Below are positions 1 through 8,364 of a DNA stretch of 8,364 nucleotides, piece by piece (position 1 is the first letter of the stretch; each line of letters begins with the position of its first letter). A program made the translations under genes and the position numbers. This DNA comes from a virus (lineage: Duplodnaviria; Heunggongvirae; Uroviricota; Caudoviricetes): positions 1 to 8,364 of IMG/VR virus record IMGVR_UViG_2778261360_000001; one strand, given 5' to 3'. Under the pieces are notes generated by a model that was given only the letters and a program-made list of their open reading frames with translations, was not told the origin of the DNA and did not search any database.

Positions 1-56
1 GAAGCAGAAAAAGCTTATTATGCTTCCATCGGAAACGATGATCTGGCAGCCTGAGT

Positions 57-1064
57 TCACAGATAAAATACTCTCCAGGAAACCCGGGGCGGTTCAGTTT
101 CCAGAAGCGCATCAGTTTCACGGATTGGTACACCACGGAATGAAGTCCACCACTCGCCTTCAGTCTCTTTTACGCTGATAGCCAGAGATGTTTTCTCCAG
201 AGATTGCAGATCAAGAGCCTGGCCTACAGTGCGGTTCATGTAGAACACCGGGCGACCCATGCCACGGTTTGGAATGCGATGCAGTGCTTTAACCATCAAC
301 TTCGCAATATTTGCGGCAGAGGAAGGTTCTGAAAGATTGCTGACATCGATGTTTGCAATGCGAACAACATAACGCCAGTCACGCAGAGCAAGTCCGTTGT
401 CCCATTTGTAATGGGTACGGTAGCCTTCGTACTTGCCGCCATTAACATCTTCCAGTGTCACCTGGCCTTTATCTTCCATCTGGATGCCAGCCTTCTGCCC
501 TTTCGGGAAGATGCCATGCACGGTGTTTTCGCCCCACACCACTAACCAGATTGAGGTGTTATCTGTACCCGTGCCACCAGCATCAATGATGTTCTGAGCA
601 TTACCCGCAGACAGGCTGGAATAGCGGGAGGACAGTCCCATAAACTGCTGAGGGTTAACGCTGGAATCACCATAAAACAACGTCTGCGCCATCTGCTGAT
701 TCATCGCTTCAATAAATGCGCGGTCTTCAGACAGGCGGAATTCGGCGGTATTACCGTTCAGATCAGCCAGTGACTTATCGACTTCAGCATAGGTTTCCAG
801 CATTCCAACGGAATCGGTGACCTGCACTGTGGTTGATTTGCTTGGCTGTACGCCATAGTTCAGCAAACGCCAGGTGGCTGAAGGTAAACCAGAACGAATG
901 GTGGTTCGGTGTCCGGTAGGAAGGTTCCCTTCGACAAAAGGCATATCCTGAAGGATCGGGTTAGTTTGACCGAGAAGCTCGATAATCTTATCGACTTTCC
1001 CGTTTGGATCGACGCGCTTACCCCAGTCAGCCAGCGTTAGCGCAGTTAAGCCTTTAACAGCCAT
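57..1064 (-). CDS. Major capsid (coat) protein, about 335 aa. The start is probably the second ATG at 1064; the longest ORF starts at 1070.
   Basis: Long intact minus-strand ORF directly downstream of the scaffold-like gene, in the canonical portal-scaffold-capsid order. The SD-like AGAGGAA at 1071-1077 gives about 7 nt spacing to the ATG at 1064 but only 0-2 nt to the ATG at 1070. Size (about 37 kDa) fits a coat protein. Family not confirmed by search. Confidence 0.7.
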   Translation of the reverse strand: MAVKGLTALTLADWGKRVDPNGKVDKIIELLGQTNPILQDMPFVEGNLPTGHRTTIRSGLPSATWRLLNYGVQPSKSTTVQVTDSVGMLETYAEVDKSLADLNGNTAEFRLSEDRAFIEAMNQQMAQTLFYGDSSVNPQQFMGLSSRYSSLSAGNAQNIIDAGGTGTDNTSIWLVVWGENTVHGIFPKGQKAGIQMEDKGQVTLEDVNGGKYEGYRTHYKWDNGLALRDWRYVVRIANIDVSNLSEPSSAANIAKLMVKALHRIPNRGMGRPVFYMNRTVGQALDLQSLEKTSLAISVKETEGEWWTSFRGVPIRETDALLETEPPRVSWRVFYL

Positions 1065-1078
1065 TGTCATTTCCTCTC

Positions 1079-1774
1079 TTATTTGCCATAGAGCACTTCG
1101 GCCGCACTACGCTGGCCTTCATTACCACCGGTGACCATGCCATCTTCAGACATCGCCTTTCCGATTTTCACGAACGTTTTGACCAGATCAGGGTGATTAC
1201 CCAGCCCGGTGGTGTTCAGATATTCTTTGAGCTCAGGTGTCCCGAACTGGTCAAGCGCACGCTGTGCGGCGCTAAGGTTAGAAATCAACTTGTCGCCACC
1301 GATTTCTTTGTCAGCTTTTACATCCGCAGCCCACTGCTCGGTTGTTTTCTGCCAGGCTTCTGCCTGGCGCTGCTGAACACCTGCCAGAATCTTCGGATAA
1401 GCATCAACCAGCTTTTGCGCTTGCTCGTTGGTCAGGTTAAGTTCTCGCGCCACCGGCTCGAATTCCTTCAACGCTTCTGTATCCAGCTCTACGCCTTCGG
1501 CAGCCTGAAACTCGTACTTCTCAGGCGCACCCTCTGGTTTATTGCCGTCCTTTTTTTCATCCTGCTTATCGTTTTCAGGCTTTTTGTCATCAGCAGGTTT
1601 ATCGCCATCAGCAACAGGTTGTGGCTTATCACCTTCCTGTTGTGATGGATCACCAACTGGAGCAGGGTTATCACCTGCAGGCGCTGACGGTTCTGACGCA
1701 GCCGGAGCTGCTCCACCATCGACTGGTTGCTCATTGCAAAGACGGCGATACAGCAAACGCTCAAATAAATTCAT
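1079..1774 (-). CDS. Putative scaffolding protein, about 231 aa from the ATG at 1774. The listed ORF begins at a GTG at 1780 that overlaps the upstream stop.
   Basis: Acidic, Lys/Glu/Pro-rich low-complexity N-terminal half and a helical-looking C-terminal half, sitting between portal and capsid. AGGAG lies 5 nt upstream of the ATG at 1774 (minus-strand sequence CAGGAGTGATCATG). Confidence 0.6.
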   Translation of the reverse strand: MNLFERLLYRRLCNEQPVDGGAAPAASEPSAPAGDNPAPVGDPSQQEGDKPQPVADGDKPADDKKPENDKQDEKKDGNKPEGAPEKYEFQAAEGVELDTEALKEFEPVARELNLTNEQAQKLVDAYPKILAGVQQRQAEAWQKTTEQWAADVKADKEIGGDKLISNLSAAQRALDQFGTPELKEYLNTTGLGNHPDLVKTFVKIGKAMSEDGMVTGGNEGQRSAAEVLYGK

Positions 1775-1776
1775 GA

Positions 1777-2073
1777 TCACTCCTGTTCACTGGCCTCTTT
1801 GGCCATCTTCAAATACTGTTCAGGGCAATGCGCCATAACGCGCTGAAACAGTTCCAGCGCCAGATTGCGTTGCCCCTCATTAAATGCCATTGCCATAGCG
1901 TCCATCGGTGAGATAGCGGAAAACACACGGCCTTTCTCCAGCTCCGACCAGACAACGCGACGCCCCTGTTCACTGCTCATGACAAAGCGAATGTCATCAA
2001 TTTCACGCTGCGCCATGTCACGTTGCTTACGGGCGTTTTCTTCTTTCAGTTGATCGTCTTCGTAATCTGTCAT
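1777..2073 (-). CDS. Hypothetical head-assembly-associated protein, 98 aa
   Basis: ATG start overlaps the portal stop (ATGA) and its TGA stop overlaps the scaffold start region, so it is translationally coupled within the operon. No recognisable motif. Confidence 0.55.
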   Translation of the reverse strand: MTDYEDDQLKEENARKQRDMAQREIDDIRFVMSSEQGRRVVWSELEKGRVFSAISPMDAMAMAFNEGQRNLALELFQRVMAHCPEQYLKMAKEASEQE

Positions 2074-3503
2074 TGTGATTGCCCACCCTGACCACTAACT
2101 GCATTCGCCATAGCTGACAAAACACTCGGATCCGAAGTTTTAGCTTCGCTTAGCGTCTTGGCACCCTGTGCCGCCGCCATCCCCATCGCCATCATTTGTT
2201 GCTGCTGTTGCTGCTGTGCCCGTTGCTGGCGAGCCTGCTCAACCTGTTCCTGCGGAACAATGACGGTTGGAGACACTCCGGACATATCAGCGAATGCATC
2301 GATCGCCTGATCAACGTTGAGTTTGTCGAGAGCTTCTGGTTTCGCTTGCGCAAGTTGACCAATGAAGTTAACCGTGGACGCCAGACTGGACAGGCCGATA
2401 GACTTCTGAGCCTGAGCCATGACGGAAATGTATTCGACCTTCAGGGGCATGCCTTCCATCGCGTCAGGCGGTGGCGGCAACATGTTTTTACGCACCATCA
2501 TCGAGAAAGCGCGGTCAATGAGAGGATTAAGACATTCGTCGTTCAGACGCTCCAGAACCGGCCCCAACATCAGAAGTTTTTCTTCTTTCATTTCGATCAC
2601 CGCTTCAACAGGCATCGAGCGGGTATTGATGTTCTGCAACATCATGAACAGATCGACAAAGTAGGCGCTGTTAATGATTTGCCGAGTGTCCTGAATGTCT
2701 GCTACCAGATCTGCTGTACTGGGGTTAACCAGATAAGCAGGCCTGAAGCCATCCTGACCAGTAATCTGATCGATATACGTGATGTCGCCAGGAAGAAGGG
2801 AGGTGCGCTGATTCTTGAGGGAAGTCGGAGCAACCATCGGCGGATTGGTGGCTTTATCAATCAACTGCGACTTGCGCTTCTGGAGAAGCTGCAATGCCTT
2901 AACAGGTCCAAGCGCCAGCATACCCGGGCATGATGATCCATAAACATCTTCGCCGTTAACTTCCCAGCGCGGAGCCATAATTGGAAACTCATCGAATCCT
3001 GACTCACGCAACAACTTGTCGTTATCGCCACCAACCTCGTAATAAACCGATTTGAATGGCTTGTTCTTGCTATCCAGCTTCGATGTATCGCGGTCAATGT
3101 TCGGGTAAACCGAATGCATCACTTCAATCCACTTCTCGTAGGTACCTCTTTCCCACATGCTTTTTACGGATTCGCTGACGTTATTTAGCCCGAACTCCTG
3201 AACAAGCTGACGAACAGTCATAGAGAACTTGCGAAAACAGGTGTCCACACTGCCACGAGGTGAGTTAGCCAGGTAGTAACTGCCTATCGGGAATGGCATT
3301 GTGCGAATGATGTCCTCGTCATCCTCCAGTACCGCCATTGCACCGGTGCTGTATGTGCCGAGGCTTCCGTATAACTGCGGCAGCGACTGATAGAGATTCG
3401 ACTTATTGAACATATCGTTCATGCGGTTCTGCACCGCCTCAAGCCACAACTTAACAGGGCCATAATCCATCATTTCAGGATCTGGCGTAGCCAGCGAAAC
3501 CAC
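2070..3503 (-). CDS. Portal protein, C-terminal segment (frame B) of a frameshifted portal gene. The ORF-finder start is an internal GTG with no SD.
   Basis: 477-codon ORF immediately downstream of terminase and upstream of scaffold and capsid. Its reading frame is open upstream of the nominal GTG and overlaps the end of ORF 3470-3748 in another frame. Contains a poly-Gln tract near the C-terminus. Confidence 0.7.
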   Translation of the reverse strand: MVSLATPDPEMMDYGPVKLWLEAVQNRMNDMFNKSNLYQSLPQLYGSLGTYSTGAMAVLEDDEDIIRTMPFPIGSYYLANSPRGSVDTCFRKFSMTVRQLVQEFGLNNVSESVKSMWERGTYEKWIEVMHSVYPNIDRDTSKLDSKNKPFKSVYYEVGGDNDKLLRESGFDEFPIMAPRWEVNGEDVYGSSCPGMLALGPVKALQLLQKRKSQLIDKATNPPMVAPTSLKNQRTSLLPGDITYIDQITGQDGFRPAYLVNPSTADLVADIQDTRQIINSAYFVDLFMMLQNINTRSMPVEAVIEMKEEKLLMLGPVLERLNDECLNPLIDRAFSMMVRKNMLPPPPDAMEGMPLKVEYISVMAQAQKSIGLSSLASTVNFIGQLAQAKPEALDKLNVDQAIDAFADMSGVSPTVIVPQEQVEQARQQRAQQQQQQQMMAMGMAAAQGAKTLSEAKTSDPSVLSAMANAVSGQGGQSQ

Positions 3504-3748
3504 GGACGCGCGGGGCTTGTGATGCCTGACATCATGCCGCTGGCGAGAGTGCGCGCCGCCATAGTCCCGGTCGAATCAATAATGCGTGTATTGCGTCGAT
3601 CGTTACGGTTGACCTCAGAAGTCAGAAAGCGGGAACCACGCGGGTTGATGTAATCACTCAACTCGCGCCAGTGCGGCTCGAACGACTGACGCTCGCTTTC
3701 AAGTTGTGCGAACTGTTTGTTCAATCGCTCTTTAGTTGTTTCCGCCAT
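3470..3748 (-). CDS. Portal protein, N-terminal segment (frame A); probable 5' part of the same portal gene, interrupted by a frameshift near 3501-3515
   Basis: ATG at 3748 is preceded by GGAG with 8-nt spacing (CGGAGTCATTGAAATG on the minus strand). The ORF ends inside the open upstream frame of the 477-codon ORF. The two pieces together would give a portal of about 560 aa. Confidence 0.6.
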   Translation of the reverse strand: MAETTKERLNKQFAQLESERQSFEPHWRELSDYINPRGSRFLTSEVNRNDRRNTRIIDSTGTMAARTLASGMMSGITSPARPWFRWLRQILK

Positions 3749-3762
3749 TTCAATGACTCCGG

Positions 3763-3969
3763 TTACTGACCAAGCAGCGTTTTACCGCTGGTATTAGCGG
3801 TTGATGTGTCGCCCTGAGAACCGGTAAGCAGCGTAGAACTACGACCAGCAGCAGCGCGACGGCGACGTGTTTCTTCGTCGCGGGCATCAACAACGGCGGC
3901 ATCCTGCTCCTGTGGTGCTGCCTGAACTTCTGGTGTTGCAGGCACTGATGGTGAGCTACCCATGCACAT
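3763..3969 (-). CDS. Small hypothetical protein, 68 aa, Ala/Pro/Gln/Arg-rich and low complexity
   Basis: Its ATG is preceded by exactly the same 12-nt initiation cassette (CGGAGTCATTGA, then 1 nt, then ATG) as the portal N-terminal ORF. Position corresponds to the small gene often found between terminase and portal. Confidence 0.4.
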   Translation of the reverse strand: MCMGSSPSVPATPEVQAAPQEQDAAVVDARDEETRRRRAAAGRSSTLLTGSQGDTSTANTSGKTLLGQ

Positions 3970-4037
3970 ATCAATGACTCCGTACGCAATTAAATTATTA
4001 CCAATTTAACCACATATGATTTATTTATCGTAGATAG

Positions 4038-4066
4038 TTGACATTTAACGCACGAATCATTACCTT
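4038..4066 (+). promoter_or_regulatory. Candidate sigma70-type promoter: TTGACA (4038-4043), 17-bp spacer, TACCTT (4061-4066)
   Basis: Perfect -35 hexamer with a 17-bp spacer and a weak -10 (T1, A2, T6 conserved), in an AT-rich intergenic stretch upstream of the plus-strand leader and tRNA. Confidence 0.3.
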
Positions 4067-4396
4067 TCAGGTAAGCAAAGAGTTCATTCCGGTTATTAAC
4101 CTGACTGGCTTGTCGTTAAATTGAACAGGTGGAGTGAGCTTTTATTTTGAGCAGTACGGCGTATGGCACATGCGCCGATAGCGGTCTGGATACGTTTAAG
4201 GGGCACCCTCCCTTGCTCGAGCAAACGAACCAGGTAGCCGGAATGTGCAAGTCGAGCGGTTTTATTCCGCGCACGGGGATTCACCATCCCGGCGATTCGG
4301 TGTGACGCCTCGGAAGAGACGAGGGTACAACGATGAGAGCATTTATGGAGCCGCGACAAAGTGTGGCGCCTTAACAGGCTAAGTGCTCTCAGCGTT

Positions 4397-4473
4397 GTGG
4401 CATTAGCTCAGTTGGACAGAGCAACCGCCTTCTAAGCGGTTGGTCGCAGGTTCGAATCCTGCATGCCACGCCA
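4397..4473 (+). tRNA. tRNA-Arg, anticodon TCT (reads AGA), 77 nt with encoded CCA
   Basis: Hand-folded cloverleaf: 7-bp acceptor stem (GTGGCAT/ATGCCAC, all Watson-Crick), D-arm GCTC/GAGC with A20, anticodon stem ACCGC/GCGGT, loop CTTCTAA (U33, anticodon TCT, A37), T-arm GCAGG-TTCGAAT-CCTGC, discriminator G, CCA. Resembles host argU but has different acceptor and anticodon stems. Confidence 0.9.
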
Positions 4474-4516
4474 GAATCACGCCTAAGGACCGTGATGCCA
4501 GAAGTTCCAGGGGCTT

Positions 4517-4558
4517 GGCGGTGATGGTTTCCCTTGAAGGACTATCACCGCCCTTTTT
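4517..4558 (+). terminator. Putative intrinsic terminator downstream of the tRNA
   Basis: 9-bp stem GGCGGTGAT (4517-4525) pairing with ATCACCGCC (4544-4552), then C and TTTTT (4554-4558). The loop is large (18 nt). Confidence 0.45.
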
Positions 4559-4636
4559 ACAGCAGGACGCCATTGCGATGACTTCATGCTGTAAACCCGT
4601 ACAGCCACGGAAGGCATAACTCATTGCTTCCAGTTC

Positions 4637-4660
4637 GCCCGGTTCGCCGGGCATTTTTTT
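4637..4660 (+). terminator. Intrinsic terminator or attenuator immediately upstream of the RBS of the 123-aa gene
   Basis: 6-bp GC stem GCCCGG (4637-4642) pairing with CCGGGC (4647-4652) around a TTCG tetraloop, followed by A and TTTTTTT (4654-4660). The T-run runs straight into AAGGTGAGATT-ATG. Confidence 0.6.
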
Positions 4661-4671
4661 AAGGTGAGATT

Positions 4672-5043
4672 ATGAACGACCAGCAAATCGAAAAAGAAAT
4701 CGTTGAGAAAGGCAAAACTGCTCCGCGCGTTACGCCAGACCATATCGGAAGCATTATTGCTCAGGAGGCATATTTCACAGCAGAGGATGGTGCCTTTGGC
4801 AAAGCCATAAAAGCGAAACATACTGGCGGAGAGGTAAACTACCAGCCGCACGAATCACTTTCTCTGCTGACGTTCTGCGTCCTGGTGCTGCGCAACGGCT
4901 TCACCGTCACCGGAGAGAGTTCCTGTGCAAGCCCGGAAAACTTTGATGCAGAAATTGGTCGGAAGATTGCCCGACAGAATGCTGTAAACAAAATCTGGAT
5001 GCTTGAAGGTTACTTGCTGAAGCAGAAGTTAAGCGAGCAATAA
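4672..5043 (+). CDS. Conserved phage protein of unknown function, 123 aa; tentatively resembles the phage Gp49 (N4 gp49 / Sf6 gp66) family
   Basis: Only convincing plus-strand ORF. AAGGTGA SD lies 4-5 nt before the ATG, and it is flanked by terminators on both sides. Family assignment is from memory of the motif and is not verified. Confidence 0.7.
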   Translation: MNDQQIEKEIVEKGKTAPRVTPDHIGSIIAQEAYFTAEDGAFGKAIKAKHTGGEVNYQPHESLSLLTFCVLVLRNGFTVTGESSCASPENFDAEIGRKIARQNAVNKIWMLEGYLLKQKLSEQ

Positions 5044-5046
5044 CAC

Positions 5047-5060
5047 CGTGACATGTCACA
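5047..5060. repeat. 14-bp sequence CGTGACATGTCACA with a 12-bp perfect palindrome core (GTGACATGTCAC), copy 1
   Basis: Identical 14-mer also at 7312-7325. Lies just after the stop of the 123-aa gene and in the 3' flank of terminase large. Confidence 0.8.
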
Positions 5061-5063
5061 AAC

Positions 5064-5090
5064 AGCCAGCCTATGAGCTGGCTTTGTTTT
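5064..5090. terminator. Bidirectional intrinsic terminator between the convergent 123-aa gene and terminase large subunit
   Basis: 7-bp stem AGCCAGC (5064-5070) pairing with GCTGGCT (5077-5083), 6-nt loop, TTGTTTT on the plus side; AAAACAAA precedes the hairpin on the minus-strand transcript and a GTTTGTG tract follows it. Confidence 0.6.
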
Positions 5091-5133
5091 ATCCTCACCA
5101 GAGGATATCAACGACATTATCCCCACCAGAGGA

Positions 5134-6609
5134 TTAAGCATAGGGATCGTAATCTGTGATGGCCTTGCCTTGCTGGTTCTGCTGCCCGGGAATTCGCAGA
5201 CGCTTCGACACAGGGAACGCAAACGTCAGCAGTAGCGCATCGCCTTTACCAGGAGAACGCCCAAGCCGCTCTTTGATATCTTCCTTCGGTTCGATAACGA
5301 TTTTACCGTCCACTCGAACTTTGTACTCTGCCGCCGACAGGTCGTCCGCTGTTTCCTGGTCATCCAGCATGCCGCCGAGCCTCAGCCATGTCTTGCATGC
5401 ATTGAACATCTCCCCACGCTTGTTAAGCATCTGCGGGTCAGTGGACGCACCGCCGAACGGAACAAGTTGCCATGTACGACCCCAGCCGTCACCGATTGAC
5501 TTCAGACCGGTACCGTAACCAAAGTCGATGAACACTGCGTCAGCCTGATACTGGTCTTCAAAGTCAGCGATACGCTTCGCCATAATCAGATCGTCGGTGG
5601 TCTTGTTACCAGTCCATAGCACCTTACTGTGCAGCCCCTGCCGCAGGTATATCACAGCGTCATCAACGCCGGAGTATGCCGGGTCAACGCCGATTATCAC
5701 CGGAGCATGTGCAACCTGCGCAGCGGTTACCACCCGTTTCATTGCCTCGTCAGTAAGGCCGGTAGGGATAAACTGCAATTCAGATGCATCCGGGAATATG
5801 CCGCGCACACGGATTTTAACGAAGTCGCTGTCTTCCCCGTAGTCATCAACCCATTTCTGCAACTGCTGTTTGTTAGTGCCTTCCACCGTCCGGCTGTCAA
5901 TCTGCGCAGTTTTCCAGCGGTGTTTATATTTGCGGAAACATTCGCGAAAACGCCCGGTGTTACGTGTAGGGTTTCCGAACGCCACCCAGATGATTTCGGT
6001 GTCTTCGTCCGTCAGCGCACCCTCTGCTACCTCCCACACCAGATCGGCAATGTTCGACGCTTCATCGAATACCACGATGATGCGTTTGCGCTCGTTGTGT
6101 AGTCCGGCGAATGCCTCAGTGTTGTGCTCAGACCAGGGGATTGCGTCAGCTCGCCACCGCTTGTCATGCCCAGGGTCATTGCTGTACATCGCGGTAGCAG
6201 TACAGGTAAACCAGTATTTCGTGATAGCAAGGTTCGACCACTTGATAATTTCCGGCCAGGTCTTCGTTCGTAGCTGGTTGTCGGTGTTGGCGGTCACCAC
6301 GACCTTACAATCCTCGCAAGTGGACATGCCCCAGTTGATCAGCATTGAGATGAATGCGGATTTACCAATACCGTGACCCGAAGCACGTGCCAGCATAAGC
6401 GGCTGATAGCGCGTCTCTGGATTCTGCAGGTGATCACGTATCTCTCGGAACGCATCAGCCTGCCACTTACGTGGACCGGTGGCATGTGCTAATTCAGTCC
6501 CCTCTTCCCCCCACGGGAACGCATAGAGGGCATAGCCAAGCGGATCGTGAGTGAACCCTGCAATATCCTCGATCAACTGCTCTTCAGGAGATAACGCTGT
6601 ATCTGTCAC
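5134..6609 (-). CDS. Terminase large subunit, 491 aa, GTG start overlapping the terminase small stop (GTGA)
   Basis: P-loop-like motif (ASGHGIGKS) in the N-terminal ATPase region, acidic-residue-rich C-terminal half consistent with a nuclease domain, size, and translational coupling to the upstream small-subunit gene. AGGA lies about 9 nt upstream of the GTG. Confidence 0.88.
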   Translation of the reverse strand: MTDTALSPEEQLIEDIAGFTHDPLGYALYAFPWGEEGTELAHATGPRKWQADAFREIRDHLQNPETRYQPLMLARASGHGIGKSAFISMLINWGMSTCEDCKVVVTANTDNQLRTKTWPEIIKWSNLAITKYWFTCTATAMYSNDPGHDKRWRADAIPWSEHNTEAFAGLHNERKRIIVVFDEASNIADLVWEVAEGALTDEDTEIIWVAFGNPTRNTGRFRECFRKYKHRWKTAQIDSRTVEGTNKQQLQKWVDDYGEDSDFVKIRVRGIFPDASELQFIPTGLTDEAMKRVVTAAQVAHAPVIIGVDPAYSGVDDAVIYLRQGLHSKVLWTGNKTTDDLIMAKRIADFEDQYQADAVFIDFGYGTGLKSIGDGWGRTWQLVPFGGASTDPQMLNKRGEMFNACKTWLRLGGMLDDQETADDLSAAEYKVRVDGKIVIEPKEDIKERLGRSPGKGDALLLTFAFPVSKRLRIPGQQNQQGKAITDYDPYA

Positions 6610-7202
6610 TGATTACCATCCTGACGTTCTTTGAGTCGCTTCCTGGCTGCTGCTATGCGATCAGCAATTGTCACATTCACATTAACATCCAGACGTTCTT
6701 TGAACGCGTTGACATCAACATGCTTACCAATCATCTCAAGGTTCTTCACCTTGTCAGGCCATTTAATTTTTTTGAGGATTGTCTCTATCGAATCCTCGTT
6801 CATGTTCATGATGGTCGATGACAGATCAAAGCCACTAAGCGTAGTGCGCCAGATTTTCGGCCACTCACGGATTGGTTTAAGGCTCCCATCGTCGTTGAGG
6901 ATGTCGATCACGTCCATCTGGTCGATCTCCACCAGGCGCATGAGAACGTAATCAGCACTGACGCGCATTCGTTTGTTGCGCTCCTCCATCAACTCGGCAA
7001 TCCGTTTTTGAATGCGTTCATCGCGCATCATGACACTGGCTTTAACTGCCGCTGTATTTGGGGAGAATCCTGCGTTAATCGCTGCCTGAGTCTGGTTTTC
7101 AGGCGTTTTGATGTATGACTGGCAATAAGCCTCCTGCATTGCTGTTAGTGGCTTAAATTGCGTTGATTTGCGTTTATAGGTTTTATGTTCAGCAGGCATC
7201 AT
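6606..7202 (-). CDS. Terminase small subunit, about 198 aa. Start is at the ATG-ATG pair at 7202/7199; the ORF-finder extension to 7280 uses a TTG and runs through a terminator hairpin.
   Basis: N-terminal region (KPLTAMQEAYCQSYIKTPENQTQAAINAGFSPNTAAVKA...) matches the helix-turn-helix N-terminus typical of phage small terminase subunits. Lies immediately upstream of, and overlaps, the terminase large gene. Confidence 0.8.
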   Translation of the reverse strand: MMPAEHKTYKRKSTQFKPLTAMQEAYCQSYIKTPENQTQAAINAGFSPNTAAVKASVMMRDERIQKRIAELMEERNKRMRVSADYVLMRLVEIDQMDVIDILNDDGSLKPIREWPKIWRTTLSGFDLSSTIMNMNEDSIETILKKIKWPDKVKNLEMIGKHVDVNAFKERLDVNVNVTIADRIAAARKRLKERQDGNQ

Positions 7203-7209
7203 AACCACC

Positions 7210-7238
7210 GTGGTAATAGTTACCGTTGTGGTAATAGT
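7210..7238. repeat. Two exact 11-bp direct repeats, GTGGTAATAGT at 7210-7220 and 7228-7238, each followed by (T)ACC, directly upstream of the terminase small start
   Basis: Read directly from the sequence; 18-bp periodicity. On the minus strand the unit is ACTATTACCAC, repeated twice. Confidence 0.8.
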
Positions 7239-7243
7239 ACCAT

Positions 7244-7271
7244 GCAAAATAAAGCCGCCATAGTTGGCGGC
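7244..7271 (-). terminator. Intrinsic terminator on the minus strand between the small upstream genes and terminase small
   Basis: 7-bp stem GCCGCCA/TGGCGGC with a 4-nt loop (7254-7271), followed on the minus-strand transcript by UUUAUUUUG (plus-strand 7244-7253 is GCAAAATAAA). Confidence 0.6.
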
Positions 7272-7311
7272 AGTATTCAAAACCCATCAAATTCATCATG
7301 CATAATCTACT

Positions 7312-7325
7312 CGTGACATGTCACA
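7312..7325. repeat. 14-bp sequence CGTGACATGTCACA (12-bp perfect palindrome core), copy 2; overlaps the stop codon of the RHH-like ORF
   Basis: Identical to 5047-5060. Confidence 0.8.
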
Positions 7326-7659
7326 CTATTAATTTCGTTTCATGCCAGCCTTTGGTCACCCAGCATTGCGAGTCACCATTACACGGGCATGAATTCACAG
7401 GAACTCTCTCGCCGCACTTACCGCAACGTTTTCTGCTGATCGATTTTATACGCCCGCGCACGCGTGCATCATCCTGGCGGATCAGCAGCGCGATGTACTC
7501 GGCCATTTCATAGGGATCGCGACCAGGGCGCCGGGCGGCGCAGTTCCGCGCCAGCATTTCCTGCTCCTGCTTATCCAGCACCAGTTCAATTTTGCGCTCA
7601 CCGGCGGCGGACTGCCGAGCGCGCTGCGCGGCTTTGCGTTCTGCGGGGGATTTAGCCAC
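7321..7659 (-). CDS. Putative small DNA-binding protein, about 112 aa: ribbon-helix-helix-like N-terminus and Cys-rich (zinc-ribbon-like) C-terminus. GTG start at 7659 or 7668.
   Basis: An RKIELVLD strand-like segment followed by a helix fits the RHH pattern; C-terminal CGKCG...CPC...C cluster. No ATG until codon 38 of the longest ORF. GGAG lies 8 nt upstream of the GTG at 7659. The start region overlaps the end of the 40-aa peptide ORF. Confidence 0.5.
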   Translation of the reverse strand: MAKSPAERKAAQRARQSAAGERKIELVLDKQEQEMLARNCAARRPGRDPYEMAEYIALLIRQDDARVRGRIKSISRKRCGKCGERVPVNSCPCNGDSQCWVTKGWHETKLIV

Positions 7660-7774
7660 GAATCGCACTCCACGCCAGATTGATTAATGACTCCCAGGCA
7701 ATATAAACCCGGATACCAGCAGCCAGGCCGAAACCAATCACCATGGCATAAAGCAGAGCGTTGCACTTGTTCAT
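7652..7774 (-). CDS. Small hydrophobic membrane peptide, 40 aa (MNKCNALLYAMVIGFGLAAGIRVYIAWESLINLAWSAIRG); not in the supplied ORF track
   Basis: ATG at 7774 overlaps the TAA stop of the DUF551-like gene (TAATG) and is preceded by a strong SD (AGGAGGTGAAGTA-ATG). One predicted transmembrane segment. Hand-translated from the sequence. Confidence 0.5.
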   Translation of the reverse strand: MNKCNALLYAMVIGFGLAAGIRVYIAWESLINLAWSAIRG

Positions 7775-8079
7775 TACTTCACCTCCTGTTTCGGCACTGC
7801 TGGCATTTCACGCCAGTGCGTAACTGAGTGCGGATCCGGATATTCGGTGCCATCATCCCAGCGATTGCCATTCCACATTGCAGACCACATCTCACCGTCT
7901 TCATACATGACCATTACCGGAATTAACTTATCTGGCATCTGCTCACTACAGCTTATCCAACCATCCTTAATGCAATTACCTTGACTCTGAAGCATAGCGG
8001 CACGACAGGCGTTCCAGCCTCTCACCTCTGCAATAGCGGCAACAGCATCGACCGCGTACATTTTAAGAGGGTTAGGCAT
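7774..8079 (-). CDS. DUF551-like phage protein, 101 aa
   Basis: C-terminal segment W-x(n)-P-x(n)-VTHWREMPAVP resembles the conserved C-terminal motif of the DUF551 family common in lambdoid early regions. Weak SD. Recognised by eye. Confidence 0.6.
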   Translation of the reverse strand: MPNPLKMYAVDAVAAIAEVRGWNACRAAMLQSQGNCIKDGWISCSEQMPDKLIPVMVMYEDGEMWSAMWNGNRWDDGTEYPDPHSVTHWREMPAVPKQEVK

Positions 8080-8148
8080 TGGTTTTTCTTCAGGTACTAC
8101 TGGAATGGGTGGGGCGGCGTAGACCTCAATAATTCCATTATCAATAGG

Positions 8149-8364
8149 TCATTCTCCATCCTTGAGGTAGTCACTTGTGCCGTCAACTTGCTGTTCTGCA
8201 ATGTGGAATGCACCTATTGGTTTTGCTTCCAGCGATGCCAGAGCAATTCGTGCCAGTTCTTCCGCTTCTTCTGCTGGCAGTACAACGTTGCTACCAGGTC
8301 CGTATGTTTCGCGCCACTGCTTGATTGTCAGCAGTCGCCCTTTGGTAATAGTGATCATGCCGCG
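8149..8364 (-). CDS. Hypothetical protein, 5'-partial at the window edge; the frame is still open at 8364
   Basis: ORF in the same frame as the DUF551-like gene, separated from it by a single TGA (8149-8151) and 23 sense codons. The ATG at 8358 may be internal. Confidence 0.4.
   Translation of the reverse strand, partial: RGMITITKGRLLTIKQWRETYGPGSNVVLPAEEAEELARIALASLEAKPIGAFHIAEQQVDGTSDYLKDGE

Follow-up and report, generated by a model that had tools for sequence, protein, structure and literature searches.

The put RNAs of phages HK022 and HK639 suppress terminators in cis, in a manner that depends on the zinc-binding domain of the beta-prime subunit of RNA polymerase and is blocked by rpoC mutations in that domain such as Y75N. 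On the protein side, Acb4 of phage SPO1, a member of family PF13876, is a tetramer that counters the cyclic-oligonucleotide-based antiphage signalling system (CBASS) by soaking up its signals, 3'3'-cGAMP and related molecules, and 3'3'-cGAMP was bound by all eight PF13876 homologues tested (10.1101/2024.12.30.630793). Here we analyzed an 8.4-kb stretch of viral DNA (8,364 nt, positions 1 to 8,364 of IMG/VR record IMGVR_UViG_2778261360_000001; hereafter the window), which comes from the end of a Uetakevirus (phiV10/epsilon15-like) prophage that encodes packaging and head functions. Between its terminase and portal genes lies a plus-strand cassette that carries a structured leader RNA, a tRNA and a gene of the Acb4 family. 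The type of cassette and the protein family are already known, and the tRNA is ordinary; the leader RNA appears to represent an undescribed family, judging by Rfam 15, PGAP annotation and the literature that could be searched.

A plus-strand cassette at the terminase-portal junction

Positions 3990-5133 are the only plus-strand stretch in the window, the terminase-portal block around them being encoded on the minus strand. The cassette comprises, in plus-strand order, a candidate promoter with an operator palindrome, the structured RNA, a tRNA-Arg(UCU), two intrinsic terminators, a gene for a 123-aa protein, and a terminator hairpin:

4038-4066, plus strand: candidate sigma-70 promoter, read from the sequence (-35 TTGACA at 4038-4043, 17-nt spacer, -10 TACCTT at 4061-4066)
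4060-4074, strandless: operator-like perfect palindrome TTACCTTTCAGGTAA, overlapping the -10
4153-4397, plus strand: structured RNA, whole (about 245 nt, six helices and a pseudoknot)
4397-4473, plus strand: tRNA-Arg, anticodon UCU, CCA encoded (ARAGORN; Rfam 73.3 bits, gathering score 29)
4517-4561, plus strand: intrinsic terminator T1 (hairpin 4517-4552, 14-bp stem followed by CTTTTTACAG)
4637-4660, plus strand: intrinsic terminator T2 (hairpin 4637-4652, GCCCGGTTCGCCGGGC followed by A and seven T)
4661-4668, plus strand: ribosome-binding site AAGGTGAG, immediately after T2
4672-5043, plus strand: 123-aa Acb4-family protein ("Gp49 family", PF13876), a predicted cyclic-dinucleotide sponge
5064-5092, plus strand: terminator hairpin (5064-5083) between the convergent acb4-like and TerL genes

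A first-pass annotation of the window had described this segment of about 1.1 kb as an insert wedged in between terminase and portal in the opposite orientation. The segment is present, with all the elements then listed at or near their places, and its orientation is indeed opposite; it is not a recent insertion, the cassette being found in all Uetakevirus relatives examined (phiV10, epsilon15, ST512-KPC3phi13.3, TL-2011b, the Escherichia coli IAI39 prophage, EC.W1-9, SPN9TCW, and Tyrion). Such constancy makes the plus-strand cassette a long-standing feature of the genus. Over positions 3750-5300, the window is 96.5% identical to phage phiV10.

The leader is a conserved structured RNA

The leader had been described as GC-rich and non-coding. 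It is non-coding, and it also contains a widespread conserved RNA element that had been overlooked. The parts of this element, all on the plus strand, are as follows:

4153-4325: structured core, supported by covariation and by covariance model R1
4157-4177: helix P1, core
4181-4195 with 4225-4238: helix P2/P2a, core
4233-4251: nearly invariant 19-mer GGTAGCCGGAATGTGCAAG, core
about 4255-4270: helix P3, variable
4276-4290: helix P4, with loop CACC
4282-4285 with 4299-4302: pseudoknot, CACC of the P4 loop with GGUG
4308-4324: helix P5, core
4326-4397: 3' domain, helix P6 (helix span 4328-4397), apical part variable

The fold was derived from 36 diverse copies (alignment A4), in which pairing holds in 91.7% of cells, compared with 28-46% after sliding of the partners, and 17 of the 35 pairs show changes on both sides. 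The covariation score of the alignment (0.262, against 0.125 in shuffles) was reached by none of 500 shuffles, and mutual-information peaks coincide with the pairs of helices P1, P2, P2a, P4, and P5. Model R1 scores 142 bits on the window. The earlier suggestion of a structured leader is thus borne out, with the plus strand folding beyond shuffles (z = -4.4; minus strand z = -2.9), and invariant G-U pairs identify the plus strand as the RNA strand.

The junction of the fold holds the 19-mer (GGUAGCCGGAAUGUGCAAG, 4233-4251), which is exact in 134 of 147 copies gathered by a different motif, most of the others differing by a single base. In the cdtI group, a C-G pair of the pseudoknot (C4282 with G4302) is replaced by A-U. 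Helix P6 is built from the pairing of TGAGAGCATTTA (4334-4345) with TAAGTGCTCTCA (4380-4391) and of CAACG (4328-4332) with CGTTG (4393-4397), its last base (4397) being also the first of the tRNA; its stem shows many compensatory variants across copies, and copies of the phage P1 type have no P6. Across copies the element measures 165-245 nt, with five or six helices plus the pseudoknot. The copy of phage P1 has a possible alternative pairing, of GCACAU with AUGUGC of the 19-mer. A boxA reading of UGCUCUU in helix P6 was dropped, as this stretch covaries as a helix.

That the leader codes for protein, or is a non-functional scar, has a negligible probability. Open reading frames (ORFs) do exist at 4096-4359 (minus strand, 87 aa) and 4147-4305 (plus strand, 52 aa), and some records annotate hypothetical proteins there; however, neither has a Pfam match, indels among the copies are not multiples of three (the core ranges from 147 to 179 nt), and substitutions are compensatory within helices, on which grounds we exclude a coding role, while conservation across unrelated phages excludes a scar.

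Some further details of the element are worth recording. Its conserved 3' end, CGUUGUGG (window 4393-4400), is also kept in copies that have no tRNA, and in Uetakeviruses it ends in GUGG, which doubles as the first four bases of the tRNA-Arg, the tRNA being fused in register. The 5' flank (window 4107-4150, GGCTTGTCGTTAAATTGAACAGGTGGAGTGAGCTTTT...) resembles by eye the P6 tip and 3' strand of other copies, for instance GCTTTGTCGTTAAATTT..GGCGGAGTGCGCTCC in copy L077, and may be the remnant of a tandem or recombined second copy. Insertions at the P6 tip in SPN9TCW (L135) and in copies L014 and L104 form hairpins resembling a tRNA T-arm (GGTTCAATTCC, GTCCGTTCAATTCGGAC, and GGTTCGATTCC), in which ARAGORN calls no tRNA.

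The RNA element is widespread

A BLAST search with positions 3990-4400 returned matches of about 80% identity in unannotated DNA of unrelated phages: P1, P7, D6, SJ46, and RCS47, the lambdoid phages cdtI, mEp460, and mEp390, Stx2c phages, Klebsiella phages, and a Stenotrophomonas phage. The element is present in 1840 of 5426 complete E. coli genomes, in none of which it is annotated (PGAP), as well as in 590 plasmids, mostly P1-like, and in at least 119 IMG/VR viral contigs. It also occurs in 24 species representatives of GTDB, which are all Enterobacterales except for two doubtful metagenome-assembled genomes (MAGs). An exact 19-mer was seen in L147 and L159, short contigs of MAGs labelled Oscillospiraceae and Bacillota, where it is probably due to binning contamination by enterobacterial phage DNA. 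The CPS-53 prophage of E. coli K-12 has no copy.

Against Rfam 15 (E <= 1), the tRNA was the sole match in the window and no family matched the element; the same search of six other copies gave no family on the element either, and C4, isrK, and YrlA had no match there. A full-text search for the 19-mer and the P1 loop sequence returned nothing relevant within the searchable literature, and the element is not described in what is searchable on put/HK639, on epsilon15/phiV10, or on the ban operon of phage P1.

In Stenotrophomonas phage vB_SmeS_BUCT709, the stretch directly 3' of the element (L009, 2131-2250) gives a sub-threshold match to the RprA family of Rfam (50.2 bits, gathering score 70, E about 1e-3). 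With the RprA 3' seed AAUUGCUGUGUGUAGUCUU and a strong terminator at its end, it looks like a phage-borne RprA mimic, and similar sequence is found in several IMG/VR copies.

The element lies at the head of early transcripts

In nearly every copy, the element comes shortly after an early promoter under repressor control. In lambdoid phages, it is directly downstream of a CI-type repressor gene, on the same strand. The order in cdtI is cI, a terminator, a strong promoter pL (TTGACA-16-CATAAT), about 43 nt, and the element, and the arrangement is the same in mEp390, mEp460, and BUCT709, so that in these four phages it has a put-like location downstream of pL in the nascent early transcript. In phage P1, it is part of the C1-controlled ban operon, 15 nt past a tRNA-Ile and about 100 nt before ban, and in Uetakeviruses it follows the operator-bearing promoter. 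More generally, in 81 of 121 loci the element follows the end of a same-strand ORF by less than 400 nt, many of these ORFs looking like CI-type repressors; upstream promoter-like sites (scoring at least 10 of 12) were seen in 18 of the 101 contexts, compared with 2 of 101 shuffles. A tRNA touches the element in 45 of 130 loci, and a tRNA-Arg abuts it in all Uetakevirus-type copies that have a tRNA.

Phage epsilon15 lacks everything from P2a to T1, that is, most of the element and the tRNA, and keeps the acb4-like gene with its terminators. The T1 hairpin resembles the P2/P2a arm, GCGGT..GATGG(G/T)TTCCCTTGA... (window 4517-4552; L006, 2792-2881), and the deletion apparently arose by recombination between two TTCCCTTGA... 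repeats.

A candidate promoter with an operator-like palindrome

The perfect TTGACA that the first-pass annotation had taken as a candidate promoter is present at 4038-4043; its -10 partner, TACCTT, is weak, with three of six consensus matches, and for this reason the promoter falls below the threshold of the consensus scan, which made no call. The layout TTGACA-N17-TACCTT is also kept in epsilon15 and SPN9TCW. The palindrome overlapping the -10 follows a pattern, TTACCTNNNAGGTAA, which with up to two mismatches occurs 15 times in the phiV10 genome, where 0.77 occurrences are expected, and twice in the window (0.12 expected). Its phiV10 copies lie mainly in the immunity region, those at 31953, 32015, 32727, and 32775 flanking the repressor and cro-like genes; others are intergenic, after terminators, and a "repressor" site is annotated at the equivalent place in epsilon15. 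The recurrence of the palindrome at the phiV10 repressor and cro-like genes argues that the cassette has a regulated promoter of its own, which would be under the same regulator as the immunity region; we infer that it would be silent in the lysogen and fire early. A weaker second copy in the window, TTACCGTTGTGGTAA (two mismatches, 7220-7234), lies inside the start of the TerS gene, with an equivalent at 87-101 in phiV10.

The tRNA and the terminators

ARAGORN (tct) and the Rfam covariance model agree on the tRNA-Arg(UCU) seen in the first pass. It is a classic rare-codon tRNA, and AGA makes up 2.1 per 1000 codons in the genes of the window, with no enrichment that would explain it. The two plus-strand hairpins with T-runs, T1 and T2, were recovered as well, and the region holds four terminator-like sites, against 1.7 expected. 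T2 is annotated in epsilon15, and is kept before different cargo genes in relatives. Because T2 lies directly before the ribosome-binding site and the interval from tRNA to gene in the window has no promoter-like site, expression of the cargo would need read-through. The hairpin at 5064-5083, earlier called bidirectional, deserves the name only in part, since the plus strand has a good T-run and the minus strand a weak one; the phiV10 annotation places it on the terminase strand.

The 123-aa protein belongs to the Acb4 family

The conserved phage protein of 123 aa, whose function had been left as unknown, is present at 4672-5043, and profile searches and structure prediction now place it in PF13876/Acb4. 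It matches PF13876 with 116.8 bits (cut-off 27, E = 6e-34) over profile positions 1-82 of 82, and public sources label its close relatives "Gp49 family protein". A phmmer comparison with SPO1 Acb4 (PDB 9e4w) gives E = 0.0024, the two proteins aligning through a F-x-V-x-G-x-SS...ENF-x-x-EIGR core. Its AlphaFold2 model (mean confidence, pLDDT, 84.2) is ordered helix, strand, helix, helix, strand, strand, long helix, the solved SPO1 protein having a three-stranded sheet with flanking helices, and in a Foldseek search of the PDB the top 13 matches are all chains of 9e4w (probability 0.82-0.96), with TM-scores of only 0.33-0.47. Double-stranded RNA-binding domain folds rank next, a likeness also noted for Acb4 itself (10.1101/2024.12.30.630793).

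We compared the ligand contacts of SPO1 Acb4 (K36, F48, E49, V56, Y57, F62, N63, I66, T70, and K81). Three of them are retained in the 123-aa protein, F48 as F77, F62 as F91, and I66 as I95; N63 is changed to D, and K81 falls outside the aligned stretch. Membership of the Acb4 family is firm on sequence and predicted structure, and the protein is predicted to be an immune-signal sponge, whose ligand preference may differ from that of SPO1 Acb4.

The terminase-portal gap as an exchangeable slot

Comparison of the junction among the Uetakevirus relatives shows that the cargo varies behind a constant leader:

phiV10, epsilon15: Acb4-like
Klebsiella phage ST512-KPC3phi13.3: Tad2-like (PF11195, E = 4e-26)
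TL-2011b, E. coli IAI39 prophage: 115-aa protein, no recognised family
EC.W1-9: 201-aa protein, no recognised family
SPN9TCW: 168-aa protein, no recognised family
Tyrion: three small genes, including a DUF551

The leader of the IAI39 prophage is 100% identical to that of the window over 4140-4400 and its cargo is different, which places the exchange point downstream of the tRNA and ahead of the gene. The uniform junction that would have counted against the first-pass reading is not what the relatives show. Searches of Pfam and of PDB sequences gave no match for the cargos of 115 aa (L133, 2221-2568; L221, 4931-5278), 201 aa (L134, 2182-2787), and 168 aa (L135, 2326-2832), nor did Pfam give one for a 123-aa cargo of Tyrion (L136, 3204-3575). 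Because their neighbours in the slot are Acb4- and Tad2-like, these family-less cargos are candidate anti-defence proteins. The terminase-portal gap of Uetakeviruses is thus supported, by gene content, as a likely exchangeable accessory and anti-defence slot. The first-pass proposal of an independently transcribed accessory cassette, possibly for counter-defence, gains support from the Acb4 family, the cargo swaps, and the operator-bearing promoter.

Flanking genes

The genes around the cassette, to which minus-strand genes for the protease/scaffold and the major capsid protein should be added, are the following:

6606-7280, minus strand: TerS (PF03592)
5134-6609, minus strand: TerL
3763-3969, minus strand: 68-aa ORF, epsilon15 gp3-like
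3470-3748 and 2070-3503, minus strand: portal (PF12236)

The 68-aa ORF lies upstream of the portal gene in all Uetakeviruses (gp3 in epsilon15); its product has an Arg-rich centre, a C-terminal GKTLLGQ, and no Pfam family. The portal gene is broken near position 3495 by a 1-base deletion relative to phiV10 (TTTCGCCTGG to TTTCGCTGG). In phiV10 it is a single 1680-nt ORF (98.3% identity), and in the related IAI39 prophage it is intact; the split reflects either a defective prophage or a sequencing error.

Possible functions of the cassette and its leader RNA

We favour, with about an even chance of being right, an accessory counter-defence cassette of a Uetakevirus prophage, with its own operator-bearing promoter driving transcription against the late genes. 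The regulator bound at TTACCTNNNAGGTAA, for which the PhiV10p40 repressor is a candidate, would release the promoter upon infection or induction; the nascent leader would fold, RNase P would cut at the 5' end of the tRNA and separate it from the leader, and transcription past T1 and T2 would yield the Acb4-like protein, which would sequester CBASS cyclic dinucleotides and leave the host effector untriggered. The firm part of this proposal is an early, regulator-controlled unit that would deliver a tRNA and an immune-signal sponge. What the leader does is more doubtful. Our tentative suggestion, by analogy and clearly short of even confidence, is that it acts in cis on the transcribing RNA polymerase, in the manner of put or of EAR of Bacillus subtilis, allowing early transcription to cross terminators of the T1/T2 type and untranslated RNA to reach the cargo. 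We suggest this because the element is promoter-proximal in early operons, because HK639 carries one put-like RNA in the corresponding place, because the cargo of the window stands behind two terminators without its own promoter, and because the early-left ORFs of the lambdoid carriers revealed no N-like protein, which is weak evidence.

Several observations weigh against parts of this scheme. Repression in the lysogen has to be set against the weak -10 of the candidate promoter, and the sponge function against the replacement of the SPO1 contacts K36, E49, Y57, and T70. Homology with put was rejected, model R1 having no match (E <= 0.1) in the early regions of HK639 or HK022; put is about 70 nt long with two stem-loops, against 165-245 nt, five or six helices, and a pseudoknot in the element, and HK022 has both putL and putR, whereas the element is found in a single copy per genome, with no second, putR-like copy in cdtI or phiV10. 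Terminators lie within 700 nt downstream in only 51 of 108 contexts, no more commonly than on the opposite strand, and were therefore rejected as a universal feature of the element. Moreover, the element of phage P1 is more than 2 kb from Pban, epsilon15 retains its acb4-like cargo though most of the element is gone, and processive read-through would not stop at the 5064 hairpin but continue into TerL in antisense.

The main rival holds that the leader is a stable non-coding RNA acting in trans, which would be co-transcribed with small RNAs, released by processing, and then target some component of the host or of its defences, perhaps inhibiting it or serving as a decoy, and we consider it unlikely, if worth serious attention. 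Release could come from RNase P cleavage at the tRNA 5' end and, in phage P1, from cleavage of the 3' trailer after the tRNA-Ile, given that the element abuts the tRNA-Arg in Uetakeviruses or sits about 15 nt after the tRNA-Ile (tRNA contact in 45 of 130 loci); T1 would end a transcript made of element and tRNA, copies of the BUCT709 type have an RprA-like small RNA and a terminator after the element, and the nearly invariant 19-mer suggests a binding surface. That the element is tied to no particular downstream gene, and that the cargo persists without it in epsilon15, point in the same direction. However, most lambdoid copies have neither terminator nor processing site after the element and run into mRNA, its consistent distance of 40-90 nt from the promoter would be needless for action in trans, and no partner protein co-occurs with it. 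It is improbable, in our view, that the leader is a riboswitch-like sensor of a small molecule (a nucleotide signal, for instance, or some other indicator of the state of the host) gating read-through into early or anti-defence genes. A complex pseudoknotted fold with nearly invariant junction nucleotides, the possible GCACAU/AUGUGC pairing in phage P1, and terminators placed downstream before sponge genes (Acb4, Tad2-like) would suit such a sensor; yet there is no adjoining expression platform, the element being followed by a tRNA or by 100-300 nt before any terminators, with many copies lacking terminators, the downstream genes are unrelated across contexts, and no Rfam riboswitch matches.

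Equally little weight goes to a reading of the cassette as a "moron" for lysogenic conversion that the prophage expresses, its tRNA serving the rare AGA codon and its leader being a mere stabilising or processing 5' structure. Its orientation opposite to the late genes, its flanking terminators, and a rare-codon tRNA-Arg(UCU) are all in keeping with a moron, but the immunity region has the same operator, which points to joint repression with the early promoters, AGA at 2.1 per 1000 codons in the window genes indicates no special demand, and mere stabilisation would not call for a 19-mer that P1, lambdoid, and Uetakevirus phages all conserve.

A broader formulation of what the leader does is possible, although the balance is against it: the leader would found a new class of phage RNA acting on the transcription machinery or on host immunity in the first minutes of infection. 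It may be a large put-like RNA conferring terminator-resistant early transcription in N-less lambdoid phages, P1, and Uetakeviruses, or it may sense or block a defence signal and thereby gate exchangeable sponge genes (Acb4, Tad2-like).

With respect to the protein, a product of unknown function becomes a predicted immune-signal sponge, and the Uetakevirus slot may be useful for finding new inhibitors among the cargos of 115, 168, and 201 aa. The RNA weighs more; it heads early transcripts in model phages (P1, lambdoid prophages of pathogenic E. coli, and Stx2c phages). A role in early transcription or counter-defence, if true, would bear on the early programme of temperate phages without N protein, and would mean that a functional RNA has escaped notice in a third of E. 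coli genomes as well as in phage P1. The element is directly testable with the existing genetics of P1 and lambdoid phages.

Comparison with known systems

The 123-aa protein covers the full profile of the family to which SPO1 Acb4 belongs (PF13876, formerly "N4 Gp49 / Sf6 gene 66 family"). It differs from SPO1 Acb4 in being about 27 residues longer, with about 22% identity and with the guanine-reading K36 and E49 replaced, and in the leader RNA, tRNA, and terminators that precede its gene. The slot is likewise linked to Tad2 (PF11195), an anti-Thoeris sponge, by the Klebsiella Uetakevirus relative, in which a Tad2-like gene follows the same leader and tRNA at the same position; no such gene is found in the window, and four other cargo types have no recognisable family.

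Conserved fold apart, the element differs from riboswitches in that terminators are absent or distant in most copies and the genes that would be regulated are unrelated. A structured RNA co-transcribed with an abutting tRNA recalls the tRNA cluster of T4 (species 1/2 RNAs) and the RNase P-processed c4/CI RNAs of P1 and P4, and since the element abuts a tRNA, RNase P would define its 3' end; it shares no sequence or model similarity with these units, and most of its copies have no adjacent tRNA. With put of HK022 and HK639 and with EAR, the likeness is one of place: the element sits just downstream of the early-left promoter beside the repressor gene, and at the equivalent position HK639 has an annotated putL-like antiterminator RNA, also in a single copy.

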